Below, one piece after another: positions 1 through 64,000 of a stretch of DNA of 64,000 nucleotides; position 1 is the stretch's first letter, and each line of letters begins with the position of its first letter. The notes under the pieces are model-generated. The model was not told the DNA's origin. It saw only the letters and a list, made by a program, of their open reading frames with translations, and ran no database searches. Source of the stretch: Amoebophrya sp. A120 (lineage: Eukaryota > Protista > Dinoflagellata); assembly GCA_905178155.1 (NCBI GenBank), contig CAJINV010000005.1:7370989-7434988 (forward strand). The letters run 5' to 3'. The translations under genes were made by a program, and so were the position numbers.

Positions 1-106
1 AAATCTGTGATGCTAGGCCATGCTGCATTACAGGCATTATGTTTCATGTAAAATATGCATGACAAATCTTGCAATCTCCCAGACCCAGACATTTTTGCAT
101 TTGATA
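1..106. mobile_element. Introner family A (right end only)
   Basis: Ends CCAGACCCAGACATTTTTGCATTTGATA; truncated by window start. Confidence 0.85.
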
Positions 107-2319
107 CACCGTGACACTGTCGAAGTGGGACAAGAATGAGAAATTGTGGTGGAAAATCGTCTGTGGTTGCATCGTCTTTCTGGTGATTCTTATGTACGTG
201 TACGTCTGTTACCTGTATGAAATGCAAAAATGTCTGGGTCTGCAAACTTGTGATGCTAAAATGTGCATGATGAAAACACTTTCGAATGCAGTCTGGCATG
301 AGAACTTCCCAAAACGCTTTCTCATAGGCAATCCGCATGAGAAGCTGCGTTTTTGCATGACAAAAGAGGCTGCGACTTTTGTTCGTTATGCAATACAGAT
401 TTTCTAGGTATGGAAAGCTAGCATTACAAGTCCCAACCTTCCAGACCCAGACATTTTTACAATCCATAACCTGCACCCCTTGACGATGGCGCGGCTGGAG
501 CGGGAAGAGAAAGAGCAGGAGATGGCGCAGGCGGCCTCCGATTGGGCGAGCCACTACAACGTGCAACAGGCGGACTATACGTCGGCGCAAGGGGGGCTCT
601 TTGGCGTGACGCCGTCCGGCGGTTTGCCGAACAACCGGGGCACGCACGGGGGAGTGTGGGCCGGTCCTTCCTCTTTTCGCGGCACGGCGGCCGATATTCA
701 AGTAGAGAAAAAAACTGTCTTGGTACAAGTGTAGCTGGCCTGGGAATGATCGTGGCTACAGCATATATAAATTTGCTCTGCATGACAGAGAAATTATGTT
801 ATCCTGTCATGCGCCGCGCCTAGTATCAGTGAACGCACGTTCGTATGAAAGAAAGGAAGACTAGGACACTATGCCTGGCTTCTAGCATGACGAGTGATAT
901 ATTGTGTGAGTACAACGTGCGTATCATTCATTACAGACTTACACCCGACGCACAGTTTATTTTTTTTTTTTGCATAGCGATAGCTGGCAGCGGGCAGCCG
1001 TCCTGGGGCGGACCAAGCTCCTTCGCCGGAATATGACACCCTCAGAATGGAAATCCTCAAAGTGGAAATAATTTGTGATGCATGAAATGCGACACCAAAA
1101 AGACTGTATTGCAGAGAACGCAATGGAGGCCGACTACGGTGCTTTACGGGTTCAGAATTGGGCCGGTGATTAGCATGAGAGAATGGCACCCCTTTGCCTG
1201 ACTAGCATGAGAGACACATTTTGAGTGCCCGGGAAATTTGTCATGCGCCGACTACAAATGGTGCTCCAACTGGACTCGTTTTTTTGCATTACAAATTATT
1301 TTCACTTTGAGGATTTCCAACCTGAGGCTTTCATACGGAACGGCTCGGGGCGGTGGAGGGGACTGGTCCTCGTGGAACGGGGCCGGACAGTACGGCAGCG
1401 GCGCCGGGTATGCGAGTGTCAGGACTGAAATTGACAAAGTTGAAATAACTTGTAATGCATAAAATCGATACCAGTTGGAAGCCAAATTTCCAAGCGGTGC
1501 GTGACAAAGTTCACAACCGTCTAGTACATCCAGTTTGTCATGCTGTTCGGGCACAGGAGAGTGCTTTTGTCATGCTCCTTTAGCAGCTCTATCCCAAACC
1601 CTAAATAGGCTCACAATCTCCTGCCTTGCTTGCCATCCCGGCAAGACAGGCACTTCATGCCTTGCATTTTATGCATGGCAAATCATTTCAACTTTGACGA
1701 TTTCAGTCCTGACACTCCCATACCGGGCAACAAGGAAGTTGGAACGGGCAGTGGGGCGGCGCCGGACAGTCTTGGGACGGTGGAGGCCACGGAATGGCGG
1801 GCGGCGCGAGGCAATGGGAGTGGGGCGGCAGTGGCGCCTCATATGGTGCAGGGTACACCAGTAACGGGCAACAAGCGCGTTGTATGGAAGGGGGTCAAAA
1901 ACGAAATCGGCAAGGTTGAAATATTCTGTCATGTTGCGACGTGTTGAAATGGTAGGACTCCTACCATTTAAGAAGAAGACCGGCACTCCGTGGTCCTCCT
2001 AGGATCACGAAGTGTAGTCGGTCTTCTTGCACCAAGTGGGTTGGCATAATATGAGGCCGATTGTACTAAGCCTGTTCGAGGTAGTTCTTGGAGATATTAG
2101 AGCTGCGTAGGAGCATGAAATCAAAAGCCATCTTTTTTTCCCCGGAAGAGCGTGGGAAATTGGATTTAGGTGATCATGCCAAAATTTGTCATGCGCCGCT
2201 CGATTTTATGCATGGCAAATTACCATCTCAATGCTTTGGTCGATTTTGAACCTGGCCCTTCCATACCTTCTTGGAATCCCGACCCTCAAGTCTACGGCAA
2301 CTCGTCTTACAATTATTAA
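107..2319 (+). CDS. 5'-truncated gene; membrane protein with Gly/Trp-rich C-terminal tail (unknown function)
   Basis: Exons join in frame after removing elements at 216, 695, 1032, 1409 and 1883. Contains TM-like WWKIVCGCIVFLVILMYVYVCYL, then repeated WxGPSSF and G/W-rich sequence. Stop TAA at 2317-2319. Confidence 0.75.
216..468. mobile_element. Introner family A (TIR TATNAATGCAAAAATGTCTGGGTCTG)
   Basis: TSD ACCTG; near-identical to 9617-9869. Confidence 0.92.
695..982. mobile_element. Degenerate introner, family H-like
   Basis: TAT...ATA, TSD GCCGA/GCTGG, frame restored. Confidence 0.65.
1032..1335. mobile_element. Introner family C (TIR TATG..TCAG.ATTGAAATC..CAAAGTTGAAATAA)
   Basis: TSD CGGAA. 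Confidence 0.9.
1409..1722. mobile_element. Introner family C
   Basis: TSD CCGGG. Confidence 0.9.
1883..2265. mobile_element. Degenerate introner family C with internal hairpins
   Basis: TATGGAAGGG...CCCTTCCATA; TSD CGTTG/CCTTC. Confidence 0.75.
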
Positions 2320-4454: not shown

Positions 4455-7400
4455 ATGAACGCTCCGGGCGAAGATTCCTCTGAGTACGACTCCGATTCCG
4501 TCAGCGCTGGGGAAGTAGAAAAGAAGGAACAACAAGCGGGGACGAAAAAGGAATCCTCCTCTTCCTCGCCAGCGTCATCCCCGAAACAGAAGAGCTTGAA
4601 GCGGGCCCAGCCAACATATGAAAGGGGACAAGAAGAAATCAATGTCTCTGCACCAACTCATCTGCGTGTAGTTGATGTCGCGGCCAGAAGGAGAGCAATA
4701 CAAAAGTTATAAGTTTGAGTTTCTATTTTGATGTGATCATGCAAAATGCCAATCACCAGAGGGCATGATAGTACCAGCATCATGTGGTCCTGCGAATAAA
4801 TGTGCATCTGCATTATATATAGCCTATGAAAAATTTATAATTAAGTCGCTGTCGTTCAACAATCATTCAGAGGACAACCAGGTCGTTGGGGCTGACAAGT
4901 TATTCTTCTTGTCCACTTGCATACAACAGGAGAGCGCCTCTTACCCGACGAGGACGAGGAGAAAGAAGGTCCAGATGGAGCAGAAGCTGGCCAGGCAGTA
5001 CAACCGGGCCAAGATGAAGGCGAAAATGAGAAGAACGACAACGCCGGGGGAGCCGCGGGTGGTCCCGCCTCTTCCCGCGCGAATGGTTATGCGCACGAAG
5101 ACGAAAAGGACGAAAAGCAGAGAGAGCTGGAGCTCGAGGCGTACAAGAAGCGCAAGGTGCAGAAGGCTTCCGCTGCGGACTTGACGCGGACAGGCGGGAC
5201 GTATCTACCGCCGTTCATGCGGGCGCGGCTGGAAAAACAGATTGACGACGTGAACAGCCACGAGGGTCAAAGGAGGAGCTGGGAAGCGCTGAAGAAAAGT
5301 ATACGTTTTTGCTATGCAAATTCAAATAGTTTTACTTCATTTTCGACCATTCATTATCTGCATGACATGACGAAGGAACAGTGTAAATCTATTGCACAGA
5401 TGATTCTACTCTCCAAACTATACTACATCGCCTTCTTCCAGGTATCAACGGCTTGGTCAACAAGGTGAACACCTCGAACATAAAAAACATCGCCTGCGAA
5501 CTCTTTTTATCCACTGTGCACAGTTGCATTTGTCAGGGGGGCCGCGAGGGAATTACAATTAGATTGAGAATCCTTGCGGTCTTGAGAAACACGGAAGTTT
5601 GTGTTTCCTGGTAGAAGTTCTTGCTACACCCTGCCTGTCATGAGAATGAAGTTGACCACCTCGTCGTCCAGCACGTGACGTCCTCACGCTGCTTGGAAGG
5701 TGGATAGTACTACACTTCAGCTTGTACTAGTTGACAGGAACAAGATCTGTCATGCTAGGCGGGAGTAAAGACGAGTTTTCGAAATCGTAAGTGGACCTAA
5801 ATCTTTTGCTCAGTGCGCCACATTGACGAAAACTTGGACCTTTTATCAGATGAACCGCAAGAAGAACGACCCTGACATTTGTCATGCATTTTTCCCATCC
5901 ATACGCCGGCGAGAACCTGATGCGCGGAGAGGGGCTGTTTGCGCGAGCAATCATTCGAGCACAGATGGCGAGTCCCGGGTATTGATTGTGCTATTTCTGG
6001 TTTTTCTCGTCGAAAGGTTTTATTTATACATCTTCTGCTCGAGTTCATAGGTACAATACGATACAAAAAAAATACAACGAATCTTCCAGTCGTCGTGACA
6101 TTATGGTGCAGACATGCAATGTTTTGTAGGTGTCACGCAAATACGCACTTCTTCTTCGGATTCTTTTCGCTGAAAGAGACAAGATGCAGCAATCAAAGCA
6201 GGCAGATAAAAATAAAATTTTAAAATTTCGCGGATTCTGAAATTGCATAAAAATAAAATTTTGAAAATTCGCGGATTTTAGTGATTGATAAAAGCCAAAA
6301 TTTGCAATTTTGCGAATTTCGAATGGATGTCTTCGACGATGTAAAAGGTTTTCAAACAAATAAAAATAAAATTTTGAAATTTCGCAGCTGGTAAAAGATA
6401 ATTGATTTTATAAAAAGCGTCTAATGGTGAAACAACTGCTGCGGCATCCATATTCCCGTGCCGAGCAAGCTAGTGTAGGTGGATCACCACACCGTCGTGT
6501 ATGATGTTATTCACGAGGGTATGACAGCCCCTTCGTCCACATACGTTGTCGGCCTCAACTTTTCCCTCCTTTAAATGTCACTATATCGATCGGGTATAGG
6601 ATTATGCACGACCGTATCAAGTGCGCCCGAAAAGTTGTAATTGTGTGTTGTAGCGATATCGAGAACTTAGACAACATAAAATCACGGAACCAGCACCGAT
6701 GACTCTTCAAACTTCAAAAACTGCAGGTTCACACACATCTACGTGGCGCTACTCGCGGTGATAAACAGCAAGCTGCCCCGAGTTATGAAAAAGAAAAAAG
6801 GTCGTGGCGATTGTGATTGTGTGTGGCAGCAAAAGCGAAAGCTCGAGCTTGCAACAATGTCGTGGATAGATGTTTCAACTCCATTTATTGCGTCTTTCAT
6901 ATGCAAGACGCGTGTTTGTATGATGAGAAGATCTGCATCTGCGAAAAGTGCTTGCAAGTTGACTTGGAAGTGGAAAGCGTGTCGTGCGAAGATGAAAATC
7001 GCCCGAGCATTTGCATCAGTGCAGACTTCCACTCATGTTTACCGGTTTCATATTGTCATGCGAGTGAGCATCATCAAGGAAGCGAAGCAAATACAGAAAC
7101 TATTGTCACCTTCTTTTTCGTTTTCATACTTCTCGGACGGCTGACTATCACGCGGGTTATTTTGCAGTTCCGCCGGGCCTACAAGCGAAACGACAAGATC
7201 GTTGTCTCTGCGGTGTGCAAATTCATCGCCCACCTGGTGAACCAGTACATTGTGTCCCAGACGGTGGCGTTGGAGGTCTGCCTGCTTTTCTTCGAGGACC
7301 TGACCAACGACTCGGTGGAACTTTGCTGCGCGCTGATCCAAGACGTCGGCGCGTTTTTACTTGAGGAGGACCCAAAAGCGCTGGACTTCATCATGAACAA

Positions 7401-10400
7401 GCTGCGCATCGTGCTGCAGGAGGGAAAAATCGACGTGCGCGTGCAGTACATTGTGGAGCAACTACTCAAGACGAGAAAGGACCGGTTCGACCAGTTTCCG
7501 CCCATTATCAAGGAGCTGGACCTGATCGAGGACCTGGACCGAGTGCGACACGACGGATTTCAGATCGATGACGTGACCTTGCGTGCCCAGGAAATGCTCA
7601 ACATCTTTCAGAAGAAAGAACCGGCAGAGTACTGCTATTGTCTTTATTTTTATCCCGTTCTTTAGTTGTTTATTCCAATCGTCCGGCTTGGTCTACTTCG
7701 ACGAAGCAATCATATCTTCCCCTCCTTAGTGATATTCCAGACTGAAGAGTTTGCGATTTTGATTCACACGTTGATTGTAGAGCCACGGGGGAAAGATAAA
7801 TAAATCAAAAAGTTGTAGAGAAGAGACAAACTGTACAACTACGGAAAAATCAAAATCTGATTTACAGCTTCGAAGAAGAGGAGAAGAACTGGAAGGACAT
7901 TAGCAAAGAGATTCTCGGAGGTGACAGCGACAGCTCGTCGGGATCGGAGTCGAGCTCCGAAGACTCCGAGGCCGAGAAATCGGAGGAGCAGGTATCGAAT
8001 GTAAAAATGTCTGGGTCTGGAAGAATGTGAACTTGTCATGCAGGTTTTCCATGACCCTTGAGGTGTGGACTGCGGGACCTAGCATGACAGAGGCTGTGAG
8101 GTCTCTTTCGTGCCTATTCTGCATGAGAAACTGCCTTTAAACTTGTTCAAAAGTGGACCTCTTTTGGTAATCATGCAACACAGATTTTTGCATGATTCGG
8201 ATTTACCATGACAAGTTGCAATCTTCCAGACCCAGACATTTTTGCAATCCATAGCAGGTGACGGCAGACCAGCACCAGGAGAACCTGATGAACCAGAACA
8301 ACATCAAGGACTTGACCGAGCAGGATTTGTATGAACTGCAAAAGCATCGTACTAGTATGAATTGCATTACAAATTTCCTCAGCATGAGAAATAAAATTTG
8401 TAATGCGGATTTAACTTGACAAAGAAATTTGGAATGCATAAACGCAATTACTACGAGTACGATACTTTTGCACAGCATAATTTGGTGAACCTGCGCCGTA
8501 CCATCTACCTGACCATCCAGAACGCGCTTGGGTTCGAGGAGTGCGTGCACAAGATCATGCGGCTGAAAAACGTGGACGGATTGGAATACAACATTGCCCA
8601 GATGGTGCTGGACGCCGCGGCCATGGAAAAAACGTTTTCAGAGTTCCACGCAAAAGCGGCGGCGCGGCTGTGTGCCTTGCGGGAAGAATATAAGGCGGCG
8701 TACGAAAAACTTTTCGAGGAACAATTTGAGACGGTATAGTTAGTTTTACCTTGTGCAAAAGTATCGTACTCGTAACTCTTGCTTTTATTATGCGTTACAA
8801 ATATTTTTCTTAAAGGCAAATCCGCACTGCAAATTTAATTTGTAATGCTAAATGCAATTTGAAATATCCACCTAACCACAAACTTTATATCAGATCCACA
8901 ACCTGGAGACGCCAAAAGTCCGGTCGATTGCCAAATTCTTCGCCCTCCTCACCTACCACAACGCCATCTCCTGGGGGATCCTTGCGTACATTGTTTTGAC
9001 CCCCGAAGCGACCAATTCTACCATCCGAATTTTCGTCAAGTACTTCCTGCTGGATCTGTCGGAGAATGTTGGCGTGCGGGAACTGTACAAGAAACTCCAC
9101 TCCGGGGAGATGTCGTTGATCGTTGCGGGGATCTTTCCCCGCGATTCCATGAACAACATGCGGTTTTCCATCAACTACTTCACCGCAATTGGGCTTGGCG
9201 TTTTGGTAGAACCGTTGCGGGAGCACTTAACCAGGGTGCAGCAAGACGAGTACTCTGAGTAAAAACATCTCCACCCCAGAGTTGTCATGCAGATTTGCCA
9301 TTGGAGGAACATCTGTAATGCGCACCCCCTTGAGAGGCATTTCCAATTTGTAATGCTGTAAACAGGATAAGCGGATGGATTTGTGATGCGGTTGTCCTTG
9401 CTAACATGCACTACACTACGGACTGCAACTTGTCATGCGTGGCTGCCTAAACTTCTGGACTTGTGTTGCTAAGTTCCCAACTTGACTCTGGAGTGGGGAC
9501 GTTTTCACATATGATAACGAGCAGGAGAAAGCCATGAAGCAGTTCGAGATCGACATGCACCAGTTAGACAGCGACGGAAACGAGTCGAGTTCGTCGAGTA
9601 GTTCAAGCTCCTCTTCTATGAAGTGCAAAAATGTCTGGGTCTGGAAACTTGTGATGCTAAAATGTGCATGATGAAAACATTTCCGAACGCAGTCCGGCAT
9701 GACAACTTCCCAAAACGCTTTCTTATAGGCAATCCGCATGAGAAACTGCGTTTTTGCATGACAAAAGAGGGCGCGACTTTTGTTGATTATGCAATACAGA
9801 TTTTCTAGGTATGGAAAGCTAGCATCACAAGTTCCAACCTTCCAGACCCAGACACTTTTACAATCCATATCTTCCTCCAGCAGCAGCTCCTCCTCCGGGT
9901 CAGACTCCGACAGCAGCAGTAGCAGTATCAAAAGAAAAAATACCCCCACGACCCCGGGTGCTTCAAAAATTTGTGATGCAAAGTTTCCAAATGAAAACTT
10001 TTTGTATTGCATGGAAGGACTATGAATCTATCTGATGCAGAATTATCTAGGCGAGTAAGGCGTCTTTTCCATGACAGACCCGGCTGCTGCTGGGCTCTTG
10101 CGCAACACAAATTTTAGCTGTTTCGCATTGAAAATTTGTGATGCTGATATATGCAAGACAGGGAATGTTTCTAGTGGAAAGGTTTGCAAGACAAACTTGC
10201 CAAATTCCGAGGTGGGGGCATAATTTTTCATTGCGATAAGCAGCTCCTCTAGTTCATCCTCCAGTAGCAGCTCGAGTTCCGACTCCGGAGCTGCTAAGAA
10301 AAAGAAGAAACAAGCCGAAGCTGTGGCAAAGAAGGGGAAAAACAACAAGAAAGACGGTGGAAAAAAGATGAAAAAGCCTAAAACTAGCAAGGGAAGCGAC

Positions 10401-11570
10401 GACGCAGACGGCGGTGAGGACGCGGACAGCACAAAGGAACATGCGGGGAAGAAGAACAGGAAGGCGAAGGATAAGGCGGGTAGTAAGACTTCGAAAAAGG
10501 AATTACAAGCAAAAAAGAAAAAGAAAACTACATCCGCTTCCGGTGAAGAAGACGACCAAAATGTTGAAAAGGAATCCTCTGAACAACGGAAAGACGCTGA
10601 TGATGAAAACCAAAACAGTCGTGGCCGCAGCAAGGAGAAGAATGGCAAGAAGAAAAAAAACTCCGCAGCAGCATCGAAGGAAAATAACAAAGACCCCGCA
10701 GGGGGCGCGGGCGAAGGGAAGACGAAAAAGAAGAAAAAAGACAACCAGGACGACGATGGTGAAAATCATGTGGACGAGAAAAAAAAAGGTAAAAAGAAGA
10801 ACGGCGATAAGAAGAAGAAGAAAACCACGTCGAAAGCAGAACTGAATAAAACGGGTGCAGCTTCCAAGAAGAAGAGTAAGCAGAATTCCTCGTTCGAGGT
10901 AGACTTGGACAAGGATGAAGAGGACCTGGTTGCCAAGGACGAGAGACTAAAGAAAAAAGCGAAAGAGCTGGCCGAAAAGCGGCAAAGCGCCGCTGTGAAC
11001 GTGAAAGTAGAAACCAACATCAAACCGAAAAACACCGACGTGGGGCAGCTAAAAGTGCTGGCGAAAATTCAGAAAGAGGCGAAGCAAAAGCAGTTGGAAA
11101 AGGAAAAAACGGAGATGGAACAAAGAGCTGCAAAGATGAACAAGACAGCAAATTATACGAAGAACCGGCGCAGCAGAAGTCGTAGCGTGGATTCCCGACG
11201 CAGAGGTGCTCCTGCAAAGGGCCGCGCGGCGGCCGGAACTACAACCGGTAACAAAAACGGGACTACGAGGAGAAACGACTCCCGGTCACCTTCGCCGAAG
11301 AACGACATCAAGCGGGGAGGTGGACGGGCAAAACCAACACGGCAGGACTCTCGGAAAAGAGGCGGCGCTGCAGCAGTGAAGAAACGAGGAGACACCAGTC
11401 GCGACAGGAAGCCCGTGAAACTCAAGTCCACAAGGGGGCAAAACGATTCGCGAGAGCGGGGGGCCGGCGAAAAGAGGAAGAGCATCGACCCTCGGGATTT
11501 GCCCAAACCGCCGAAACGGAACAAGAACAGACGGGAAGTGGTCTCTGATGCATCTTCGCTTAGCCGGTGA
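4455..11570 (+). CDS. CWC22: Pre-mRNA splicing factor CWC22 (MIF4G + MA3 domains), ~1164 aa, 12 introns
   Basis: Family motifs RTGGTYLPPF, QRRSWEALKKSINGLVNKVN, ENLMRGEGLFARAIIRAQMASPGFT, LQFRRAYKRND, LVNLRRTIYLTI...FEECVHK, RFSINYFTAIGLG. Lys/Ser/Arg-rich tail. Spliced length 3495 nt, in frame. Confidence 0.95.
4617..4923. mobile_element. Introner, singleton family (TIR TATGAAAGGGGACAAGAAGAA)
   Basis: TSD CAACA; frame QPT-GERLL restored. Confidence 0.88.
5299..5441 (+). other. Canonical GT-AG intron (CWC22)
   Basis: GTATAC...TTCCAG; joins KKS-INGLVN. Confidence 0.85.
5508..5903. mobile_element. Degenerate introner
   Basis: TATCC...CCATA; TSD decayed, but removal plus 5 nt gives ELFCENL in CWC22. 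Confidence 0.65.
5979..6726 (+). other. Canonical GT-AG intron (CWC22) with internal AT-rich repeats
   Basis: GTATTG...CTGCAG; joins SPG-FTHIY. Confidence 0.85.
6784..7128. mobile_element. Degenerate introner (TIR TATGAAAAAGAAAAAAGG)
   Basis: Removal plus 5 nt restores SKLPRVGRL. Confidence 0.75.
7629..7867 (+). other. Canonical GT-AG intron (CWC22)
   Basis: GTACTG...TTACAG; joins to FEEEEKNWKDISKEILG. Confidence 0.85.
7993..8253. mobile_element. Introner family A
   Basis: TSD GCAGG (allows GT-AG). Confidence 0.92.
8330..8479. mobile_element. Introner family B (TIR TATGNANTGCAAAAG(C/T)ATCGTACT.GTA)
   Basis: TSD ATTTG. Confidence 0.92.
8734..8893 (+). other. GT-AG intron containing a family B remnant
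   Basis: GTATAG...TATCAG; TGTGCAAAAGTATCGTACTCGTA at 8752-8774. Confidence 0.82.
9251..9516. mobile_element. Introner family D (TIR TATCCTGAGTAAAAACGTCCCCAC)
   Basis: TSD ACGAG; left end TAC. Confidence 0.9.
9617..9869. mobile_element. Introner family A
   Basis: TSD TCTTC. Confidence 0.92.
9926..10238. mobile_element. Introner family G-like
   Basis: TSD AGCAG. Confidence 0.88.
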
Positions 11571-15800: not shown

Positions 15801-17362
15801 AGACATTTTTGCAATCCATATGAAAACTTTCTGGGAGATAGCGCTCTCGTTCAAAAAGAGGCGGATCCGAGCGCTGAAGGTATGAACTGCAAAAGTATCG
15901 TACTCGTATAAATGCATTACAAATTTCCTCCGCATGAGAAAGAAAATTTGTAATGCGGATTGACCTTAAGCAAAGGATTTGTAATGCATGATTGCAATAC
16001 GAGTACGATACTTTTGCACAGGATAGAAGGAGAGAATTCGCAACGGAGAATGCGCGGATATGGCATTCTCAACTGTTACATTCTTCACTGAAGCATGAAT
16101 TTGCGATGCAAGAACCGCAAAAGCCAAAGGGGGAAGGTTGCACCTGTTCCTTTAGGTGCTGCCTAGCCCTTCGCAGATTTGTCATGTGAAGCAGCTTGAT
16201 CGTGTGCATGATGTTGGGAAATTTTGCATTACAAATGTTTGTAATGCTTGAGAATGTAACGTTTGAAAACCCCATAACGGGCGAGGTGCGGGAAAGGGTG
16301 GGTCTAGTAGACCACGACGAGATATGCAAGGCAAAAGCATCGCGCTAGTAGGAATCGCACCACAAATTCGGTCAGCATGACAAATGGAATTTGTCATGCT
16401 GTTTTGCCTTGGGATGGAGATTTGTAAATGCATGTCTGCAATTACTACGAGTGCGATGCTTTTGCACAGGATACGAGACGGCACAGACCCAGGAGACTCT
16501 CAAGGCGCAAACTTCGTGGAGTAGCAGCGTCGAAGCTGCTGGACGGCGCACAGGAAGTCATAGTACTTCCGAGCCAGAGGAGGTTGTAGCAGGACTTCGG
16601 GGCGGGGTTGTACTACGGAAGCCAGCAATCTTGTTGGATAGCAAAGTCGTGTCTCCTCTTCACTCCAGCAGTGCTGACGGTGGCGGAAATGGGCATCAAC
16701 AATGCGCCAAGATGAACGCGTCCTCCGCCGCCACGGATCATCTTGATTTCGGGCGGTCGTTGTTCCCTGGAGTTGGTAAAGACCCGGACGGCGAGGTCGA
16801 AGCAGCTGACCACGACGAGCAGGATCGAAGTGAGTCGGCTGATGAATCCTTCAGCGAAAAAAGAACTGGCGATGAACAAATTTTCTCGGTTATCCTATGT
16901 AAAAACGTCCCCACGCACGTCATATTCAAGCTGGGAAGTCTGCAACACAAATCCCCAACTTTTGGGAGTTCTCCATGACAAGTTTCGATCTGCAGTGTAG
17001 TGCTGGGTAGCAAGGAAAGCCGCACGAGAAAGCCACTTTCTCATCCTGTTTACAGCATTACAAGTGCCAAAACTACACGACTGGAAACGCGTCTCATGGA
17101 GATGCGCATTACAAATGTTTCTGTCATTGCGCATTTGCATGACAACGCTGGGGTGGGAACGTTTTTACATATGATATCGGCCTCATGGTTGTCCACGTCC
17201 GCCACACCACGCCCCGGCGACGCATATCTGACAGAAGACGCGGGTAGTTGTACCATCGCAGGCATGAGGATGAGCTCAACCTCAACAGCAGCCGTCTGCA
17301 GAAGGGGAAAAGTGGTCTTGTCAAAGGAGACGGGAAAATTGGAATACCAAATTATTTCTTGA
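12854..17362 (+). CDS. Hypothetical protein with PPR-like helical repeats, ~615 aa, 13 introner introns
   Basis: In frame after element removal (1848 nt). RRRFRECAFILEQMQLRQIPFDEISYNFAI resembles a PPR motif, as does AFAFLTQMRSENI-type sequence. Confidence 0.7.
13044..13200. mobile_element. Introner family B
   Basis: TSD ACCGA. Confidence 0.92.
13225..13482. mobile_element. Introner family A
   Basis: TSD CGCAA; right end ACA variant. Confidence 0.9.
13553..13788. mobile_element. Introner family E (TIR TATGA(A/G)AGTGCACAA..CCCC)
   Basis: TSD TGTGG. Confidence 0.92.
14238..14392. mobile_element. Introner family B
   Basis: TSD GCAAA/GCAGA. Confidence 0.88.
14642..14864. mobile_element. Introner family H (TIR TATC(A/G)CA.GAAAAA.GTGTT)
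   Basis: TSD GAAAA. Confidence 0.88.
14937..15086. mobile_element. Introner family B
   Basis: TSD ACCAC. Confidence 0.92.
15105..15320. mobile_element. Introner, singleton family
   Basis: TATCCG...TGCATA; TSD GCTGA; frame HPTLL-RLHANF. Confidence 0.82.
15379..15528. mobile_element. Introner family B
   Basis: TSD ACGCA/ACGCG. Confidence 0.9.
15570..15820. mobile_element. Introner family A
   Basis: TSD TGAAA. Confidence 0.92.
15881..16025. mobile_element. Introner family B
   Basis: TSD GAAGG. Confidence 0.92.
16059..16276. mobile_element. Introner family F (TIR TATGGCGTTCTCAA..GTTACATTCT)
   Basis: TSD GCGGA/ACGGG. Confidence 0.88.
16323..16473. mobile_element. Introner family B
   Basis: TSD CGAGA. 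Confidence 0.92.
16891..17176. mobile_element. Introner family D
   Basis: TSD TCGGT/TCGGC. Confidence 0.9.
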
Positions 17363-48699: not shown

Positions 48700-51600
48700 A
48701 TGCTAGCGAAACTGCAAAAGTCCCTGACCCGCGGGGGGTCCTCACGCTCCACCTCTCCAGCCAATAGTACCAAGTCCCCCAAGCACCACCAGCATGACAG
48801 CTTTAGTAACCAGCCCGACAGCCAGCAAACCACGCGGCCGGGGTATCCTGAGTAAAAACGTCCCCACACCAGAGTTGTCATGCAAATCTGCATGCCAAAA
48901 AAGTTTAAGTTTCTCATGCTGAGCCCCATGAAAGGCATTTTCTAATCGTGTTTTGGGATTTGTGATGCTATAATCAGCATGATATACTAGATCTGTGATG
49001 CTGCTGAACTACCTAAACAGGATTACATTACAAGGACAAACTTGTCATGCGAAACAGCCAAAGCTGGTTGATTTGTCTAGCAGATTTACCATCTTGACTC
49101 TGGTGTGGGGACGTTTTTACTCAGCATACGGGGTCGCCCGGCCTGGATTCGCTCGCGGACTCGGAATATGCATTACAAAAGTATCGTGCGCGTATAAAAA
49201 ATGCATCACAAATTTCCTCAGCATGAGCAATAAAATTTGTAATGCGGATTCAGCTTGTTGAAAACAAGATTTGTATTTTGCATGTTTGCAATTACTACGA
49301 GCACGATAGTACTTTTGCACAGTATACGGAAGTCAATCAGCCCCAGCCGGTTTCGGACATGCCGCCGAAGTACAACAGTAAGAAGCCGGAAACACAGCAG
49401 CAGATTGAAATCGAAAATAGAAAACAGGAATACATCAAGCCGCAGGTTTGTTTCAACTTCTACCACGGATCGGAACCGACGAAAAAGGTATCAAATGCAA
49501 ATGTGTCTGGGTCTGGAAGGTTGTCATGCATCTTCAGGATCACACGAATGCTCTGGAATGCACGAAAGCGCATGACAGATCATGCAAGAACTTCGTAATG
49601 CCTGTTTCGCATGAGAACTTTGCCCTGTTCCTAGAAAGAAGAGAAGGACTTTTGGCGTTCACGCAACACAGACTCCTCTACGATCCAGACTTGGCATGAC
49701 AAGTTCCAGACCCAGACATATTTGCAATGCATAGAAGGTGTTCCACCACATTTTCGACTTGGAGCACGAGATGCTATGAAAGTGCACAACTGCCCTTGCT
49801 CCCCCTCATTTGTATTGCATGAACAGCAACACAAGCGTCAGACAGAATACAGGTTTTGCATGACAAATTTGGACAGGAGTGTAGTTCTATTGGGGCAGCT
49901 GCTGCCAGAACTTGTCATGCATAATAGTGGCAGGAGGCAATGCGTAAACTAGGTATTTTGCATGAGAAATGAGAACGAGGGGGAGTTCTGCACTTTCATA
50001 GATGCTGACCAGAATTCAGAAGCTGACCAAGCCGAAGGAGTTGACGGCCCGGGAACGGCGGAACAACTTGAGGTTCGCAGAATTAACCACGAAAATGCAC
50101 AACCAGCTGGAGACGATCGATAAAAACAAGGAGATGCTGAAGAAGGTGATGACGGAATCCGATGAGGAGCGGATGGCCAAGGAAGACGTGAAATCGAAAG
50201 AGGAACTGGAGATGGAGAAGAGATTACGAAACGCGTCGAAGGACAAGGACGGGCAGATCGTGACGATCGACGAGGTATCCAATGCAAATATGTCTGGGTC
50301 TAGAAGAGTCATGCTGCTTTTGCATGACACAGAAGGTCTGGCGTGGAAGCTCTAGCATCACAGGTTTCGAGAAGCTTCGGCGCTGCCGAATCCGCATGAC
50401 AAAGGCGCTATTTTAGTGACAAAAAGTGAGCAGCTTTTGCTGCCTGTGCATGAGAGATTTTTATGTGTTGTGAAATGCGCATCACAAGTCTGCATTCATC
50501 TTCTACGACCCAGACACTTTTGCATTTGATACGAGGAGGAGGAGCTGGACAACGAGAACGAAGCGAACAACGACGGGAAAGTGTTGCAGAAACACGTCGG
50601 GTATCCACAATAAATTTCCCGTACACGACTTACAATTGCGGTCTCTGCATGACAAAACTTGGCTTCGATCCTAGTTTAGCATGACAAGTTTTTGGTGAAA
50701 TTTGTAATGCAGCTTGTACATTTACGGTAAATTTGTCTTGCATATCGGGTTGACCTACGAAGACGTGAAGTTGGTTCTCGCGCGGCATTTGAAACGACCG
50801 GTAGGTATCCTGAGTAAAAACGTCCCCACACCAGAGACAGAGTCAAGATGGGGATTTTGCAACACAAACCTATAGAGCTTTGGACGTCACGCATGACAAG
50901 TTGTCGCATTCCATAGTGTACTAGTGCAGGTTTTAGCAGGTGCAGCCGCATCACAGATCCATCTGCCTGTCCTGTCCACGGCATCAAAAATTCCAAAACA
51001 CGATTAGAATGCGCATCACAAATGTCCTCGTCAATGCAAACCTGCATGACAAGAACTCTGGGGTGGGGACGTTTTTCCTGAGGATAGTCGGGACGGTGTT
51101 TTTATCCATGATGGAGGCGAAGGATGTGGACAAATTAGTGGAGGTGGAAGATGACAAAATGACGGACCCGAAGGAAAAACAAGCGAAAATTGACGCAGAA
51201 ATCGCAGCGAAGGCGAAAGCAGGGTATAGTAATAGTTCTTGTGATTGATAGTTGTTGATGTTATTTTTTTGATATGCGAAATTATTGGTATGATAGAGAT
51301 AGACGGCGAGGAGCTGCTTCTTTATCTTTCGTTTGATGAGATGCAACAACCGCAAGTTCTTTAAGGAACTGTCGAACATCAAAGTCAAAATCCTAAACTA
51401 TGGCGTTCTCAAATGTTACATTCTCAACTGTTACATGATTTGTCATGCAAAAACACCATCACTCTTAACACGATCAAGCCTTCTCCGCATGACAACTTCT
51501 TGACGCGCTAGATAGCATTACAATCTGTCCCAAACCTGTAATGCAAAAGGCGCAACATTTTCCCTTTCACTTTTGCCATTCTTGCATTACAAACTTCATG

Positions 51601-54600
51601 TAACAGTTGAGAATGTAACGTTTGAGAACGCCATATTAAACCACAGTTCCCCCCTGACCGCCAAAGCCAAGTCCAAGACCGGCGCAGCCAAAGCGGCCTT
51701 CGCCTCCAATATCACAGGAAAAAAGTGTTACAGTTGTTACACACTCGTTGCAATTTCAGCATCACAAAGTTGCTCTGCATAGCAACAAAAACTTGTGATG
51801 CGCAGACTGTAAAGGAAAACACTAAAACGCACCATGAAGTAAGGCTGGAGAGCATTTCCTGCATGACAGAGGTTGTCTGTCTTGCTGGTCTTGCATCAGA
51901 GGGATAGCTGTAACACTTTTTTCCTGCGATATCCAAGCCGAAGATGTCAATGCTGTCCCGGATGCGCACCACGGTCGCGGGGAAGCTGATGGGCCCGGCC
52001 GCGATGAAAGAAAACGACTTAACCTACATATTGTCCTTCCCGATCTCCCGAATAAAATCCGGCGAGAAAAAGCGGTACGCCCCGTTGCACTTCGAGCGGT
52101 GTATGCGGCAGGGGTACGCGATCGACATTCCGAAACTTTCCGCCGAGCGCATCACCCGAGCGGATAACAAGACCATCCTTTCCTTCGGATCCCCACGGGA
52201 GAAATCGAAGCGGGCGAACCGGCTCGAGGGGTTTGAGAAGTACAAAGAGGGAGAATTGTACTTCATCGCGGAGATGGGGGCGAAGTATTACGCGAAACCT
52301 TTGACCAATTTCGAGAAAACGAAGCACTTCTGGAACTTCGACATAATTGCGGAAACGGCGAAAACCAACGTGAAACAGAGGTTTGAACCGGGGGTGATCG
52401 AGGAATTGTCGAAGAAGATGGCGTTGCTTGCGAAGAAGAACAAATCCGTTCCATTGGCGGAAAAAAGGAAACCGAAGACCGGATTGCGCACGATGGATTA
52501 CCAATGTTCCGTGCCGTTAGCGGAGCGAAGAGAATCGGAGTTGACGGAATCGGAATACAGTGAGATATGAATTGCAAAAGTATCCTACTAGTAGTCATTG
52601 CAATACAAATTTCCTCCGCATGATAGCTGGAATCATTTATCATGCTGTTTTACCTTAGGGGCAAGATTTGTCATGCCTAATTGCAATTCGTACGAGTGCG
52701 ATACTTTTGCACAGGATATGAGACCGACTCGGACGATTCCATTTTGTCGCCCGAAGAGATCTATCAAATGCAAAAATGTCTGGGTCTGGAAGATTCTTAC
52801 ATTTGTCATGCATGGCTGACATGACTCGAGACTCTGTGATGCAGGGGCACGAAAAGGCTCGCCTATCTGTCATGTAAAAATGTTGTTTCTCATGCGGAAT
52901 ACGCAACACATAGCAGCTCAAAAAGTTGTCATGCTTGGCTGCGTATTGCAGTCCGGCTATCATCCGCTTTTAGCATTATAAGTTTCCAGACCCAGACTAC
53001 ATTTTTGCATTTGATAAGATCCGGCAAAGGCAGTTGTACAAAGTTCCGAAGAAAAAGAAAGAGGAAGTTGAGGAACCGTTGCGGAAAAAACCGAAAATCC
53101 CGACGTTTTACATCACATTCGGGATTCGGGAGCGGTTCACTCTGGATAAGGAAATCGACGCTTCGAAACGGATATGCAATGCAAAAGTGTAAAGTGCTTG
53201 CTCCTCGTATATTTTTGAATTGCATGCGCGCATGACAAACCCGCTCCTGATGCTGAATCAGCGTGACAAATTCCATCTGTCATGCTGAGCTGATTTGTAA
53301 TGCAGTTACCACTACAACGAGGACCACTAGAAGCACGATAATACTTTTGCACAGCATAGCGCAAACCGGGCGTGAAAGAGATGATGCTGCACTGGCTCGA
53401 AAACCGGTTGGCGAACAAAATCACCGACATCGACGACGAAGCTTCCGGTTACCCCGCATTTGCTATCAAAAGGAAAAATCCCCCCTCCCCATATCGGCAT
53501 GAAGTTTCTGATGCTGGATTTGCGTACACAAATCAGGTCTGTCTTGCTGGAGAGGACTGCAGGCATATGCCAACACTGAGGCGGGTGGTTTTGACGTAGG
53601 CGACTAGCATGTCAAATGTCTATGGTGTAAGCCCGATAGCATCACAAACCGCCTGCATAATGCGGCGGACTCTCTGGCTTTGCCTTCGTGCAAGACAGAG
53701 GGGGTTTGTCGTGGCGACCAATCTGCATCACAAATTTTCGGGCGGATGCGCTTTCAATATGGGGAGGGGGGATTTTTTGTCACAATATTTGCCGGTCCGG
53801 AAGGGTATGCGGAGTGGGAGTTGATGCGGCAGATCCGGAAGAGGTGTAGCGACATGTTATGCATTGCAAAGCAATCGTATTCGTACCACTAGTATAAATT
53901 GCATTACAAATTGACTTAGCCTTAGAAATTGACTTTGTAATCATGCGGATTTGCCTTAAGAGAAAGATTTGTAATGCGGAAACGCCATTGGTACGAGTAC
54001 GATGATTTTACGATGCATACATGTACTTTCACAACAAATCCGACGTGGAATTATTGGAGAAGATCCACAACTCCGCGAAGTCCTTGGAAATCTCCTGGAT
54101 GTTCCTCTGTATGAGGGAGTACGAGACCCGGGTGTTTGGCTTCCGCACCCCGCGGTTTGAAATCGAAAGACGAATCGCCAAAGCGAAGATGGAAGAGGAG
54201 GAACGAGAACGGAAGAAAGCAGAAGCGGCGAAGAAAGCGGAAGAAGAGCGGAAAATGGCGATCATCCGGGGGGACATTCCGCCAACACCAGTGGCTGTTT
54301 CCAAAACAAAATCATCTTCCGCTGCGGTAGTGCCAATTACCGGAGTTTCGACCGATTCGCTAGGAGTTGGTGCTGTTTCTGCAGCAGTTGCAATCGCGTT
54401 CGGGACACCAGCAGCTTCATCGAGGCAAAATTCGTCGCGTGCGAGCTCCCGGAGGTACACGAGCACGGTGGGTGTGCAGGACATCTTAGGAGATGGCGGC
54501 ACAGAATCTTCGTCCGTAGCCAGCTCCCGGGGGGACAACAGGATCGAGCTTAAAAAACTGGCAGAAGTTGATGGCTTGATTCAAACCTTGACCCAGAAGC

Positions 54601-59901: not shown

Positions 59902-61128
59902 GTGGTGGAATTTGTTTTATACTTATTTCATGGTGGTCCTCGTTGTCTAGCATGTTGCGCATGAGAAGAAACTCTACAACTGCAAGGTGGAGCTGCTGCA
60001 GCTGCCGCGTCCTAATGTGGTAGTCGTGGTGAAAATTACGTATAACACGAACTGTTATTTTTGTACGATGTAAGTTTCTACTTTTCTTGTGGTACGAAAA
60101 TGATCTTCCTGTGCTACAATGTACAACAACTCGGAGAAGTTTAAGTTTGTGGAGCCGTAATTGCAAAGAACACAATAAATCCGAAACTCGTATAAACTAC
60201 TGCTTTTGTCTCGCTCTCGTCCTTTTCGGGGCAGCACGTAGAATTCAAAACAAAACTATGACTTTGACGCACGGAAAATGAACTCCGCTTGCTACTTGTA
60301 TGATTCTTGTTTCGCTCTGTGACATCGACGACGCTCTAGTGTGTGTGTAAGAATTGTGGACATTATTGTACCATGGTCATCCTCATCTGTTCTTGTTGTC
60401 ATCCTCATCTCGTCTTGGGTGGATGTGGCACAGCAGAAAGATTGCCCGTCCAACCGATCGTGGTCCTGTACGCGCAATTTTGTCAACACAGTGCGCTTCA
60501 TTGTTCAAAGTAGGAGCAGAAAGACGAGCACGCGCTCTCTTTCTCTCCGCGCCACGAATTGCTCGCCCAAGCTGAGGGCGCCGGTCGGTAGTTCTTCGTG
60601 TAGGAGAAGTCACTAGCTCATTGCTTTAATCTATTAAAAACACGACAGGCGGGTTACAGCGCATAATTCTGAACTTGATTCAGCTCAGAGAAGTTGGCGG
60701 GCTTTCTCCCTAGGCTGCTAATTTTGCAGCAGCACGAGTGATGTTCTCTTTTCTGTATGGCAGACGTAATATTTGTATTTCATCGTCAGCAACCTCCACC
60801 TCATCCGCTACTTGTAGACGTGGAAAAAAATTCCACCTCGCTTGAATAGTACGACCTCCCCCCCGAGCGCATGAGTATTACCATTAAGTTGTGCAGATGA
60901 AGTACTTTAGTTCTTTCCTCGAGTGATTGCAAAGTGTGACCACCTCCATCTGATTTGCACGACCCCTATTTCGCCTGTCCTTCATCAAGTAGAGTACAAA
61001 CAGAACAGTTTATGTTGCTCCGCTAGTCCTCGTACATCACGTAAGAAGTAGAAGTTAGTATGTAGAACCAACTTCTCTATCAAGCAAATACAAATCACCG
61101 ACATCTATCTTTTGAAGAAAATCAAACC

Positions 61129-62203
61129 ATGACCCAGTTACAGGCTTCTTCAGGTTTCAGCGATGATGACTGGGGCGCCTTTGAGTCCTCACCGCCCGTG
61201 CATCGGGGAGAGGTTCTCCAACCCCAACCAGGGTCAACGTCGTCAGGACCAGGGGGCGCGACGAGTTCCTCTTCGTCTACTTCTGCTAGGAAGATGCAGC
61301 CACCCGCAGTGCTGAAAGTAGACAACGGGACGCTCGACGCGTTATTCTATAACGAGCACCAGCACAGTCGTGGGAAAATATCAAATTCTGCTGGTCCTCT
61401 AGATGAATTACTTGACCATGATCACTCAGGCCGCGGGTCCTCGACTGCAAAAATGATACCTGGAGGAGGTGCAGGCGTGCGTCAGATGAATGAAGCCGCC
61501 ACTGTGCTCGAGGATCACGAGAAACACACGATTACCGTGTACTACAAGGGAGAGAAAAACATCGTCACCTGGTACGCGGACGGCACCATGAGCATATGAG
61601 AGTGCAACTGCACATCAACTACTCCCCCTCGGCCCGCGTTCAAAAGAACGCATGAACAGCAACACAAACAACGAGGGAAATGTGGCTTCCGCATGACAAA
61701 TAAGCTTCTGGAGGTGCACACGGACGGTAGTACTGTTTGAGTTCGTTTCAAGTAAATCTGTCATGCAGGAGAGACAGCCTGATGGAAAGACGCGGACTTG
61801 GTATTTTGCATGACAAAGGCGGAGGTGGAGTTGTTGTGCACTTTCATAGAGCAAGCGCGACATCCAGGAGGCCATACTCTGTGCCTGCGACGCGATCATC
61901 GATGGTGGATTTGTGTTGCGAGAGATGCAAATGAAACATGCCGACGGCAGTCAAAAATGCATGACAAAAAATCATACGAGTGAGACAATAACAACCGTGG
62001 ACGACCTGTTGGGAGACCACGACGGGCCAACTACGCAGACCACTTCCCATCAAGCCGCTTCCGGTAGTACACCAGGCGCAGCAGATTCGACGACATCCGC
62101 AAATAATGACGACGAGTCACAGTTCACACTGACGGACCAAATCCTGGAGTGGGAACAGTTTGACCAGCTTAAACACAATTCCGTCTACCTCCTGCAGCCC
62201 GGT
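61129..62203 (+). CDS. 5' part of a hypothetical gene, presumably continuing beyond the window
   Basis: Exons 61129-61594 and 61854-62203 join in frame (GTMS-KRDIQEAILCACDAIIDGGFVLREM). A family C element then begins at 62204. Confidence 0.65.
61595..61848. mobile_element. Introner family E
   Basis: TSD GAGCA. Confidence 0.9.
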
Positions 62204-64000
62204 TATGGAAGCGTCAGGTTTGAAATCAACAAAGTTGAATAAATGTATGACCGGGCACGCGTGGTCTTGCGAGCCTGTGAGTCAAGGCCGACAGTGGTCG
62301 GTCTATATTTTATGAGCGGGCTCAACCCGCCCATCACGGTAACCAAAACCTGAGTAGCATGAATATGAACCAGGCAGGGGCGCAGTTTTGCGTTGATTTT
62401 CCTGCTCTGTGTTTGACATGCTGGGTTTTCAGGGACTTGCGCCCCTGCCGATGGTAGCTTGATTGTGATTCGCCGAGGGTGATTAGAGCTGCTATTTTGC
62501 TCTGCCTTAGGCCGATTTATTTCCTCCTGATTTCTCCAGTTCTGGAGAGGGAGAGTTTATTTTCAATCCTAGTTTCGGATTATGATTGGTCTCCCCTGAT
62601 TTCTCTCGTTCCGGAGAGGGGGAGAGAGTTTATTTCCAGTCCTAGCTTCGGGCTAGGTTGGATTTCTCCTGATTTCTCCCGTTCCGGAGAGGGAGAGTGG
62701 TTTTATTTCCAGTCCTAGTTTCGGGCTAGGTTGGACTTCTCCTGATTTCTCCCGTTCCGGAGAGGGAGAGTGGTTTTATTTCCAGTCCTAGTTTCGGGCT
62801 AGGTTGGATTTCTCCTGATTTCTCCCGTTCCGGAGAGGGAGAGTGGTTTTATTTCCAGTCCTAGTTTCGGGCTAGGTTGGACTTCTCCTGATTTCTCCCG
62901 TTCCGGAGAGGGAGAGTGGTTTTATTTCCAGTCCTAGTTTCGGGCTAGGTTGGACTTCTCCTATTTTCTCCCGTTCCGGAGAGGGAGAGTGATTTTATTT
63001 CCAGTCCTGGTTTCGGACTAGGTTGGATTTCTCCTGTTTTCTCCCGTTCCGGAGAGGGAGAATTGAGTTTATTTCCGGTCCTAGTTTCGGTCTAGGTTGG
63101 AGTTCTCCAGATTTCTCCCGTTCCGGAGAAGGAGAGTGATTTTGTTTCCAGTCCTAGAAGTTTCGGGCTTGTTTGGATTTCTCGTGATTTCTCCCGGTTT
63201 GGAGAAGAAGGATTTGAGTTCCCGTCCTAGCTTCGGACTACGTTTGATTTCTCCTGTTTATTTTCCCCCGATCTGGAGAAGGGACATTTATTTTCAGTCC
63301 GAGTTGCGGACTATGTCGGATTTGTGCGGTTTTCTCCCGTTTCTGGAGAGGGAGAATGTAACTCCGGTCCTAGTTCCGGACTAACTATGTTGGGCGTCTT
63401 CTATTTTCTCCAATTTTGGAGCGGGGGGCTTCGCCCTAAGTCCGGGGGTTTGAAGTATGCCCCAGATTTCTAGTTTCCAGCTCGAGGGAGGGAGGCTCCG
63501 TCCTGTTTCGGATGATTTCTTTGCGAGTGGCCTCCTATTCCCCCCTTGCGAGGAGAGAGTAGGGAATCCATTTCCCCTTCGGGGTCGATTTTGTTTGATT
63601 TTCGCATCCGTTTGTGATGGCGGAGTGAGTCTCTGCTTGATTTCGCATTTTTATTTGCCGCGCTTTCCCCGTACAAATCGGAGTATCCCCCTTGTGTCTC
63701 TCAGCGAGCGTGTTTCAGTCCTGTTGTTAGTCGGGCTTGGAGCAGTTTATCGCCACACATCTCTCGTGCTGGTGAGGGAGCATCGGCCGCGTTTATGCCG
63801 TTTCTTCGGGGGCTTCTCCACTCTCCCCGCTCGGGGAGTGGGTTTCTCTTGGATTTCCACTTGTGAGGGCAAGAAGTCTATTGCCCCAGGTTCTCCCGGG
63901 TGCGGAGAAGGATTTCAGGGTCTAGCTGCAGGCTGCTTTTCTGCTCTAATTTCCGGCTTCTGCCGGCTTTGGTTTTCTTGTGGGTCTCACTTTATTACTC
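62204..64000. mobile_element. Family C left TIR interrupted at ~62244 by a larger unidentified insertion running off the window
   Basis: TATGGAAGCGTCAGGTTTGAAATCAACAAAGTTGAATAA followed by unrelated sequence beginning TGTATGACC. Confidence 0.6.
62505..63440. repeat. 73-bp tandem repeat, ~12 copies, homogeneous centre and decayed edges
   Basis: CCTAG anchor recurs at 62568, 62641, 62714, 62787, 62860, 62933, 63006 (as CCTGG), 63080, 63153, 63226. Confidence 0.92.

Follow-up and report, generated by a model that had tools for sequence, protein, structure and literature searches.

How can genes be read when their coding sequence is interrupted again and again by short transposon-like elements, most of which cannot supply GT-AG splice sites in any register? 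This question is raised by a stretch of 64,000 nucleotides from the dinoflagellate Amoebophrya sp. A120 (contig CAJINV010000005.1 of assembly GCA_905178155.1, positions 7,370,989 to 7,434,988 of the forward strand), here called the window. It holds eight genes (g1 to g8), all on the + strand, and every one of them is interrupted by elements, as a preliminary description of the sequence had stated. The elements are the introner elements of A120 described by Farhat et al. 2021 (PMC7789003), and the phenomenon is published; what is probably new here is a proposed code for the cut, the removal of the elements itself being already known. Our overall reading, which we hold tentatively, is that they are exonic insertions resembling MITEs (miniature transposable elements with inverted repeats), cut one base before a 5' TAT and four bases after a 3' ATA by a relaxed, hairpin-guided spliceosome of the host.

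Anatomy of the elements

Elements were located with an inverted-repeat score and a library of ends, and the list was then curated by hand. It contains 80 complete elements of the TAT...ATA type and two partial ones (1-106 and from 62204), which agrees with the earlier estimate of about 82 mini-transposons. The complete elements are 143 to 821 nt long (median 253), make up 31% of the window together, and start with TAT (78/80) or TAC (2/80) and end with ATA (79/80) or ACA (1/80). The length of the flanking repeat is strictly 5 bp: as first reported, the repeat is perfect at this length in 55 of the 80 elements, and none has a perfect repeat of 3, 4 or 6-9 bp, while one, two, three and four mismatches are present in 14, 9, 1 and 1 elements, respectively. 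A mechanical rule found 48 pairs of terminal inverted repeats (TIRs) with a perfect 5-bp repeat in the window and none in ten of ten shuffles. Of 240 sites at each TIR end, 2 and 1 are changed, whereas the decay of the repeats would predict about 12. Folding of 74 elements, the six long ones being left out, gave predicted hairpins with a median z of -7.1 and a z below -2 in 70 of them.

These elements lack the GT/GC...AG ends of canonical U2 introns. GT-AG could be obtained in any register for five of the 80 (those at 7993, 15881, 41914, 49489 and 50276), which bears out the earlier statement that few duplications allow it, and for 13 of 79 when GC-AG, GA-AG and AT-AC were allowed too. Seventy-nine elements lie in coding sequence, which makes up about 66% of the non-element DNA, and one lies upstream of the first ATG of g1; no complete element was found in GT-AG introns or between genes in the window. 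Decayed or single element ends were seen in the GT-AG introns 8734-8893 and 5299-5441 and after the g3 stop (17386). The shortest internal exons between elements are of 13 and 19 nt.

Retention of the element would break the reading frame in 57 of 80 cases. Removal of each element with 5 nt, together with the seven GT-AG introns and one foreign 1,746-bp element, left no internal stop in seven of the eight genes, while other removal lengths (not differing by 3) left 4 to 70 stops in seven of the eight, g1 being uninformative. All three codon phases occur among the 79 window elements that were phased (element 216 was left out).

Evidence for removal from RNA

The read evidence covers positions 40000-59990 of the window and comes from 4 of the 10 runs listed; the junctions of g2 (the CWC22 gene), g1, g3, g4, g5 and g8 lie outside this part. 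There is one run per side. The contigs of run X3 are likely RNA (a predicted status, not one on record), since a GT-AG intron of 193 nt is skipped in this run too and the intergenic DNA at 48004-48670 has no depth in it. The contigs of run X5 are DNA-like and span elements plus both flanks at a depth of 41-47 (e.g. 43184-44615 and 46071-47108); the check for element-free genomic alleles proposed in the preliminary description thus found the elements retained, though rare forms could escape.

Transcripts had also been proposed as a check, and the X3 contigs skip 169 nt (164+5) at element 46330-46493 and 240 nt (235+5) at element 47082-47316. Among the joints listed (15 of 1,157, most from the DNA-like run), the element and one repeat copy were skipped exactly at two of two junctions, both in the Sec1 gene (g6), and three further X3 piece ends coincide with element edges. 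Two RNA runs examined as raw reads were uninformative, with totals of 88 and 6 reads of which none fell on window exons. In the raw RNA run X8, 69 reads from both strands join an element end (window 52762-52795) to one flank from elsewhere; their source is either DNA or an element left unspliced at another locus.

The spliced models of g6 and g3 were identical to the annotated A120 proteins P0060 (1081/1081 residues) and P0063 (615/615 residues), which places the window genes in A120. A query with a Sec1 exon returned the A120 protein at 100%, the ortholog of strain A25 and one more protein. Conserved Sec1 and CWC22 motifs extend across the element junctions and agree with those of A25 and other orthologs, so that the restoration of both motifs claimed at the outset was upheld, for Sec1 by identity and for CWC22 by homologs. 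The argument then drawn from the essential nature of CWC22 has only homology behind it; the A120 CWC22 protein did not come up in protein searches.

A precise removal independent of GT-AG is supported by the 169- and 240-nt skips and the two protein identities, and we consider it very probable that this removal occurs at the RNA level. It restores the pre-insertion message, as seen at two junctions and as implied elsewhere by the frames and the annotated proteins. Cryptic GT-AG sites elsewhere were rejected, given the exact skips and the protein identity. U12 introns were rejected as well; a minor spliceosome was not found in A120 by Farhat et al. 2021 (PMC7789003).

Likely register of the cut

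Identical copies of the repeat cannot place the cut, whereas mismatched copies can. With k defined as the number of repeat bases retained from the left copy, nine of the 25 mismatched elements were informative (Table 1), the other 16 being synonymous or without RNA or protein to test them. The register k=4 is admitted by eight of the nine, while k=3, 2, 1, 5 and 0 are admitted by 7, 6, 5, 5 and 2 of them, respectively. Only k=4 satisfies all eight constraints besides that of element 51399, and k=3 fails one. The chance that eight independent random cuts all admit k=4 is 0.021 (ninth element excluded).

The phenylalanine at the 5508 site is found in 50 of 59 CWC22 homologs and in protein P0068. 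At 6784, the sole site that tells k=4 from k=3, 50 of the 59 homologs carry V or I and 8 carry L, while P0068, which is 74% identical, has V. The constraint at 43741 comes from a likely-RNA contig piece that begins at 43972 with no extra letters, the upstream piece not being listed. Element 51399 is the exception. With one more base counted past the right end its repeat becomes perfect, removal of 6 nt gives a codon score of 10.3 vs 2.0, and it is better read as a variant with one more base in the 3' spacer. The g7 GT-AG intron starting at 51224 has an ambiguous acceptor (51224-51398), which decides whether this element loses 5 or 6 nt. The 5-nt geometry holds even where the two copies disagree at 3-4 of 5 bases, so identity of the repeat is not needed.

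We regard as probable a fixed register N1-TAT...ATA-N4, in which the intron takes in one base ahead of TAT and four bases past ATA. At k=4 the intron would begin with N-TAT (78/80) or N-TAC (2/80) and end four free bases past ATA. The seven ordinary GT-AG introns of the window have the donors GTAT (4), GTAC (2) and GTAG (1), all starting with GTA; one of these is RNA-verified and two lie within the protein-verified Sec1 model. Beyond +1, N-TA(T/C) would match the GTA(T/C/G) of these seven introns, a likeness that depends on the register chosen. As the likely register keeps a T at +2 and an A at +3, the lack of GT-AG need not mean that the introns are signal-free or non-spliceosomal.

In Table S4 of Farhat et al., all 18 of the 18 "predominant" non-canonical pairs have T as the second base, and in strain A25, where the repeat starts with TTA, introns begin with TT (PMC7789003). 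The share of elements falling in the nine A120 pairs of that table was 19.4% at k=4, 12.8% at k=1 and below 5% at the others. Ends were altered in 20 of 370 elements with perfect repeats: 6 of 8 changes at the 5' end affect the third base and 9 of 12 at the 3' end affect the outer two, an asymmetry that is weak (Fisher p 0.065, or 0.050 minus three poorly oriented elements). The published figures (the logos of Fig. 3 and Figs. S19-S25 of Farhat et al.) may already display the N-T-A pattern. No paper fixing the register or describing lariats was found for Amoebophrya, in a search that was thin on subscription journals, and the accessible parts of PMC12787238 and PMC12621601 hold nothing on the register.

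Further copies and probable transposon origin

A search of one other assembly with a 28-base end motif gave at least 128 loci, which yielded 414 distinct elements, 314 of them with a perfect 5-bp repeat and none with one of 6 bp. Flanks were absent for 11 of the 414; of the remaining 403, 90 were not confidently oriented and 313 were oriented by a codon model, which on the window gave the right strand in 66 of 66 and the right phase in 65 of 66 cases at threshold, having been trained on those same genes. None of the listed loci overlaps the window genes, which leaves no empty sites to compare. Clustering of 392 elements gave 63 clusters, the largest with 103 members. Families occur in both orientations (e.g. 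57 vs 46), and the signal must therefore be symmetric.

The inverted repeat contains an A-run, with A at positions 11-13 in 84-94% of the 392 elements. The motif TGTVATGC or its complement is present in 386 of 392, at 11.9 per kb vs 0.14 in coding sequence, and may have a putative role in transposase binding or provide a branch adenosine, the candidate for the latter being the A in GCATBACA, 40-59 nt from the 3' end. Repeat starts are biased in phase (170, 118 and 104; p 1e-4), and at k=4 phase 0 would be the commonest.

The elements are short, have TIRs and a target site duplication (TSD) of fixed length, and exist in many copies and in both orientations, as MITEs do. From the inverted ends, the exact length of the duplication and the two orientations, we infer that they were inserted as DNA by a transposase; none was found for them in the window or the locus set. 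With regard to a cognate autonomous element, six longer copies were present in the 128 loci listed; the comparison with A25 and other orthologs was made at the protein level. One copy (L038, 476-2934) is 2,459 bp long, has a perfect 5-bp repeat and carries a 2.2-kb insert in one end; a frame of 415 codons within it had no Pfam or atlas match and is possibly cargo or an unrecognised mobile gene. Ginger transposon ends are TG..CA. The elements share TA..TA termini with IS3EU/GingerRoot and the 4-5-bp duplication with Ginger2 (PMC10045372), while the duplications of IS3EU/GingerRoot are usually of 6 bp (PMC10045372), a length found here in 0/80 and 0/414 elements.

Proposed mechanism

The elements would insert into exons as DNA through a transposase and make a 5-bp duplication, and removal of the element with one repeat copy would return the message to its earlier state. 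The cut would follow the single register N1-TAT...ATA-N4, and because its spacers sum to the 5 bp of the repeat, any insertion would be silent. TAT would provide positions +2 to +4 of a host donor (GTAT/GTAC), the predicted end-to-end hairpin would bring the ends close to each other and set the acceptor by distance, and the machinery would disregard the first and last intron bases. A120 and A25 would both read N-T-A despite their different repeats. A ruler code of this kind, by which TAT-ended transposons are removed seamlessly by a machinery that needs only T at +2 and A at +3, seems moderately probable. For the catalyst, a relaxed spliceosome is modestly favoured over a hairpin nuclease-ligase, for two reasons: in both strains the conserved bases correspond to donor +2 and +3, and the non-canonical introns of Fritillaria borealis offer a spliceosomal precedent (PMC11282704; Soo et al. 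2026, PMC13326754).

Several observations weigh against this proposal, and the first of them concern the register. Eight of the nine A120 pairs of Table S4 also end in A-N, which is the mirror register (k=1), so that an artefact of junction placement could produce the table. Only the constraint at 43741 is RNA-based; five lean on annotated proteins whose junction rule is not known. The register k=3 fails at a single site, where 8 of 59 homologs carry L, and element 51399 conflicts with k=4 unless 6 nt are removed. A codon-likelihood test on the mismatches was without signal, the left base being better in 11/23, 15/29, 6/16, 9/20 and 14/27 cases at positions 1 to 5, respectively, and stop codons were informative for polarising mismatches in three cases, one of them probably miscalled.

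Other observations concern the catalyst. The spliceosome normally requires the end bases G and AG, and no preference for them was found among 292 perfect repeats: G was present at repeat position 5 in 87 vs 89 expected and AG at positions 3-4 in 33 vs 24.5 expected (p 0.09). The mismatches showed no drift to G (7 vs 8) or to AG (4 vs 6). The 3' ATA is as well conserved as the 5' TAT, which mimicry of a donor alone is insufficient to explain, and a stable stem would conceal the donor. Finally, TAT may be a heritage of the transposase, as TA..TA ends are native to IS3EU/GingerRoot.

Alternative explanations

The same geometry could be produced outside the spliceosome by a dedicated nuclease that cuts at set distances from the foot of the TAT/ATA stem (1 nt upstream, 4 nt downstream), with a ligase joining the exons, a scheme proposed for the nonconventional introns of Euglena. 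Such an enzyme would account for the lack of effect of the first and last intron bases, for the equal conservation of both ends and for a strong symmetric hairpin that works in either orientation. Euglena offers parallels, since its 5' spacer is strict while one extra 3' base is tolerated (PMC12501133), like the one read at element 51399, and its introns are excised as circles without lariats (PMC11282704). However, some end changes (TAC, TAA, TAG, ACA, AGA, AAA) break terminal pairs without compensation, and pairing at positions 4-8 does not exceed that with shuffled partners (670 vs 729 +/- 13). The conserved bases are also those of the host donor, which appears to hold for two strains whose repeats differ, and 15% of the A120 canonical introns share the organisation (PMC7789003), against rare hybrids in Euglena (PMC12501133). 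On balance we consider a nuclease-ligase rather unlikely, although it is the strongest competitor of the relaxed spliceosome.

A removal from RNA with no single register, by cuts anywhere in the repeat or guided by the identity of its copies, would agree with element 51399, which follows the alignment on the repeat, and nine informative sites are a small sample. Yet copies differing at 4/5 and 3/5 bases still restore the CWC22 motifs with the 5-nt geometry, and one register is common to eight of the nine informative elements, which makes this explanation improbable.

Excision from DNA, similar to that of the internal eliminated sequences of ciliates and giving element-free templates, would fit the transposon anatomy and the precise loss of one repeat copy, and rare excised DNA might escape among the few joints listed, since contigs drop rare forms. 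The depth of the X5 contigs across the elements speaks against it, as does the fact that the run whose contigs lack the elements also lacks the GT-AG intron and the intergenic depth, and we hold it to be highly improbable.

Jumps of the reverse transcriptase, for which a hairpin with a short direct repeat is a known substrate, could explain the skips in cDNA if the genes were dead or read by ribosome hopping (itself rejected), as the lack of g7 expression in the likely-RNA run might suggest, but this too is highly improbable given frames open across 13-17 elements per gene, Sec1 and CWC22 motifs that bridge the junctions and match the orthologs, insertions in all three phases, and ends conserved in exons while the remnant in GT-AG intron 8734-8893 has lost one end.

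Gene models

The genes and elements are listed in Table 1. The preliminary description gave six complete models in frame; seven of the eight genes were indeed free of stops, but g7 retains one at element 51399, which goes away only with a 6-nt removal or a shifted cut, and the frame of g5 also requires the removal of a 1,746-bp element of another class (35069-36814). The latter is a nested palindrome: its arms (GAG...CTC) measure 106 nt, it has a 3-bp repeat, and inside it lies a perfect inverted repeat of 397 nt. Its removal with 3 nt reopens the g5 frame, and its ends are neither TAT/ATA nor GT-AG; either this allele is null or the element belongs to a second class that is spliced. The introner 44899-45719 likewise has nested inside it a GAG...CTC element (about 45119-45675) whose repeat is TAA, and the annotated Sec1 protein joins correctly over this 821-nt composite.

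A Pfam match was absent for six of the eight genes in the exons and proteins scanned, g1 not being among them. The frame of g1 is open at element 216-468. The g7 exons between 54007 and 57341 have zero depth in the likely-RNA run. A tandem array (62524-63355, period about 73, 11.4 copies) follows the truncated element at 62204.

Table 1. Genes, elements and informative repeat copies in the window (k, repeat bases retained from the left copy)
Feature	Position	Strand	Details
Partial element	1..106	+	right end only, at window start
Partial element	62204..62243	+	left end only, no partner end found
Informative element	5508..5903	+	copies CTTTT/CGCCG; conserved F requires k>=3
Informative element	6784..7128	+	copies CGAGT/CTTCT; V not L requires k>=4
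Informative element	16059..16276	+	copies GCGGA/ACGGG; k 1-4, from protein P0063
Informative element	16891..17176	+	copies TCGGT/TCGGC; k<=4, from protein P0063
Informative element	40228..40488	+	copies CAACA/AAGCA; k>=1, from P0060
Informative element, TAC start	42404..42655	+	copies CGGTA/GGGTA; k>=1, from P0060
Informative element	43047..43356	+	copies GCCTT/GTTTT; k>=2, from P0060
Informative element	43741..43969	+	copies CTACA/CCACG; k 2-4, RNA-based; P0060 agrees
Informative element (exception)	51399..51635	+	5-nt removal leaves stop unless k<=1; no RNA or protein evidence
g1, Gly-rich	107..2318	+	partial or short
g1 elements	216-468, 695-982, 1032-1335, 1409-1722, 1883-2265	+	
g2, CWC22 (MIF4G + MA3)	4455..11570	+	from frames and homologs
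g2 elements	4617-4923, 5508-5903, 6784-7128, 7993-8253, 8330-8479, 9251-9516, 9617-9869, 9926-10238	+	
g2 GT-AG introns	5299-5441, 5979-6726, 7629-7867, 8734-8893	+	
g3, 615 aa	12854..17362	+	without Pfam family; equals annotated A120 protein P0063
g3 elements	13044-13200, 13225-13482, 13553-13788, 14238-14392, 14642-14864, 14937-15086, 15105-15320, 15379-15528, 15570-15820, 15881-16025, 16059-16276, 16323-16473, 16891-17176	+	
g4	19391..32428	+	2,923-codon open frame once elements are removed; without Pfam family
g4 elements	21423-21691, 21898-22161, 22244-22401, 22644-22900, 24190-24441, 24504-24772, 25729-25995, 27321-27573, 27958-28220, 28279-28586, 29202-29455, 29500-29663, 29741-30134, 30225-30369, 31113-31263, 31843-32103, 32151-32402	+	
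g5	34086..39019	+	without Pfam family
g5 elements	37070-37218, 38115-38421, 38482-38717	+	
g6, Sec1 family, 1081 aa	40088..47606	+	equals annotated A120 protein P0060
g6 elements	40228-40488, 40542-40862, 41914-42168, 42404-42655, 42705-42853, 43047-43356, 43403-43675, 43741-43969, 44576-44839, 44899-45719, 45869-46098, 46330-46493, 47082-47316	+	
g6 GT-AG introns	41121-41371, 44203-44395	+	
g7, ~2,175 aa	48700..59901	+	without Pfam family
g7 elements	48844-49128, 49167-49326, 49489-49733, 49775-50000, 50276-50531, 50602-50744, 50806-51086, 51399-51635, 51710-51931, 52566-52718, 52762-53016, 53173-53358, 53464-53787, 53858-54019, 57180-57329, 57645-57800, 57882-58041, 58112-58390, 58991-59280, 59402-59663	+	
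g8	61129..62203	+	partial, no visible end
g8 element	61595-61848	+	

Comparison with known systems

Farhat et al. 2021 (PMC7789003) described elements of about 240 nt whose inverted repeats start with TAT, which form hairpins and are removed with support from RNA sequencing, and whose direct repeats measure 3-5 nt (the Fig. S19 legend gives 5 bp). The window elements share the TAT start, the A-run about seven bases later, a repeat of 3-5 nt, the grouping in families and the removal without GT-AG, and their host is A120 itself, as the Sec1 and g3 identities showed; the preliminary description was right that introners were already described in Amoebophrya. In that study, 65% of introns are non-canonical, the border is "unknown" or variable with no clear signature, the mechanism is left open, and 83 of 89 spliceosome proteins were found while U1 was not detected (PMC7789003). 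The single register, the likeness of T+2/A+3 to a donor, the two orientations, the conservation of the ends and the location in exons only are proposed or counted here.

The nonconventional introns of Euglena follow the code N3-CAG...CTG-N5, their machinery being unknown (Nomura et al. 2025, PMC12501133). They resemble the A120 elements in having inverted ends, direct repeats that can slide, a suspected MITE origin and spacers of unequal but constant length (in A120 as proposed here). Their spacers sum to 8, which would be a common duplication length. The A120 elements differ in their ends (TAT...ATA), in their spacers (likely 1 and 4) and in belonging to an unrelated lineage, and thus work alike without being members of that class; Euglena also requires a purine at the start of the next exon, whereas no base preference was found in the A120 elements.

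In Fritillaria, as in A120, introns derived from TIR/TSD elements dominate and are removed despite their non-GT-AG ends; the dominant end pairs there are AG-AC and AG-AT, U1 is kept and U2AF is duplicated, whereas the end bases of the A120 elements are free. The TIR/TSD introners of Aureococcus, Micromonas and Symbiodinium are likewise DNA transposons of the non-autonomous kind and generate introns without altering mRNA length (PMC9860276, PMC12130899), and their splice sites can fall within the duplication (Gozashti 2022, PMC9860276; Gozashti 2025, PMC12130899). However, those introners use genuine GT/GC/GA and AG sites, either their own or co-opted ones, whereas 75 of the 80 elements in the window cannot form GT-AG.

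Significance

The published system comprises tens of thousands of introns. Through mismatched repeats its "unknown border" becomes a countable quantity, and a fixed register would point to where lariats or circles and the key bases lie. If the code is true, it would form with the N3...N5 code of Euglena a recurring solution in unrelated lineages, performed by a spliceosome that has lost U1 and the G-G end rule, or else by a nuclease-ligase of an undescribed kind. In the first case the spliceosome would work without end bases thought to be near-essential; in the second, an alveolate would possess a second general nuclear splicing system. Either way, the code would explain why coding exons can be filled by a transposon (31% of the window) at little cost.

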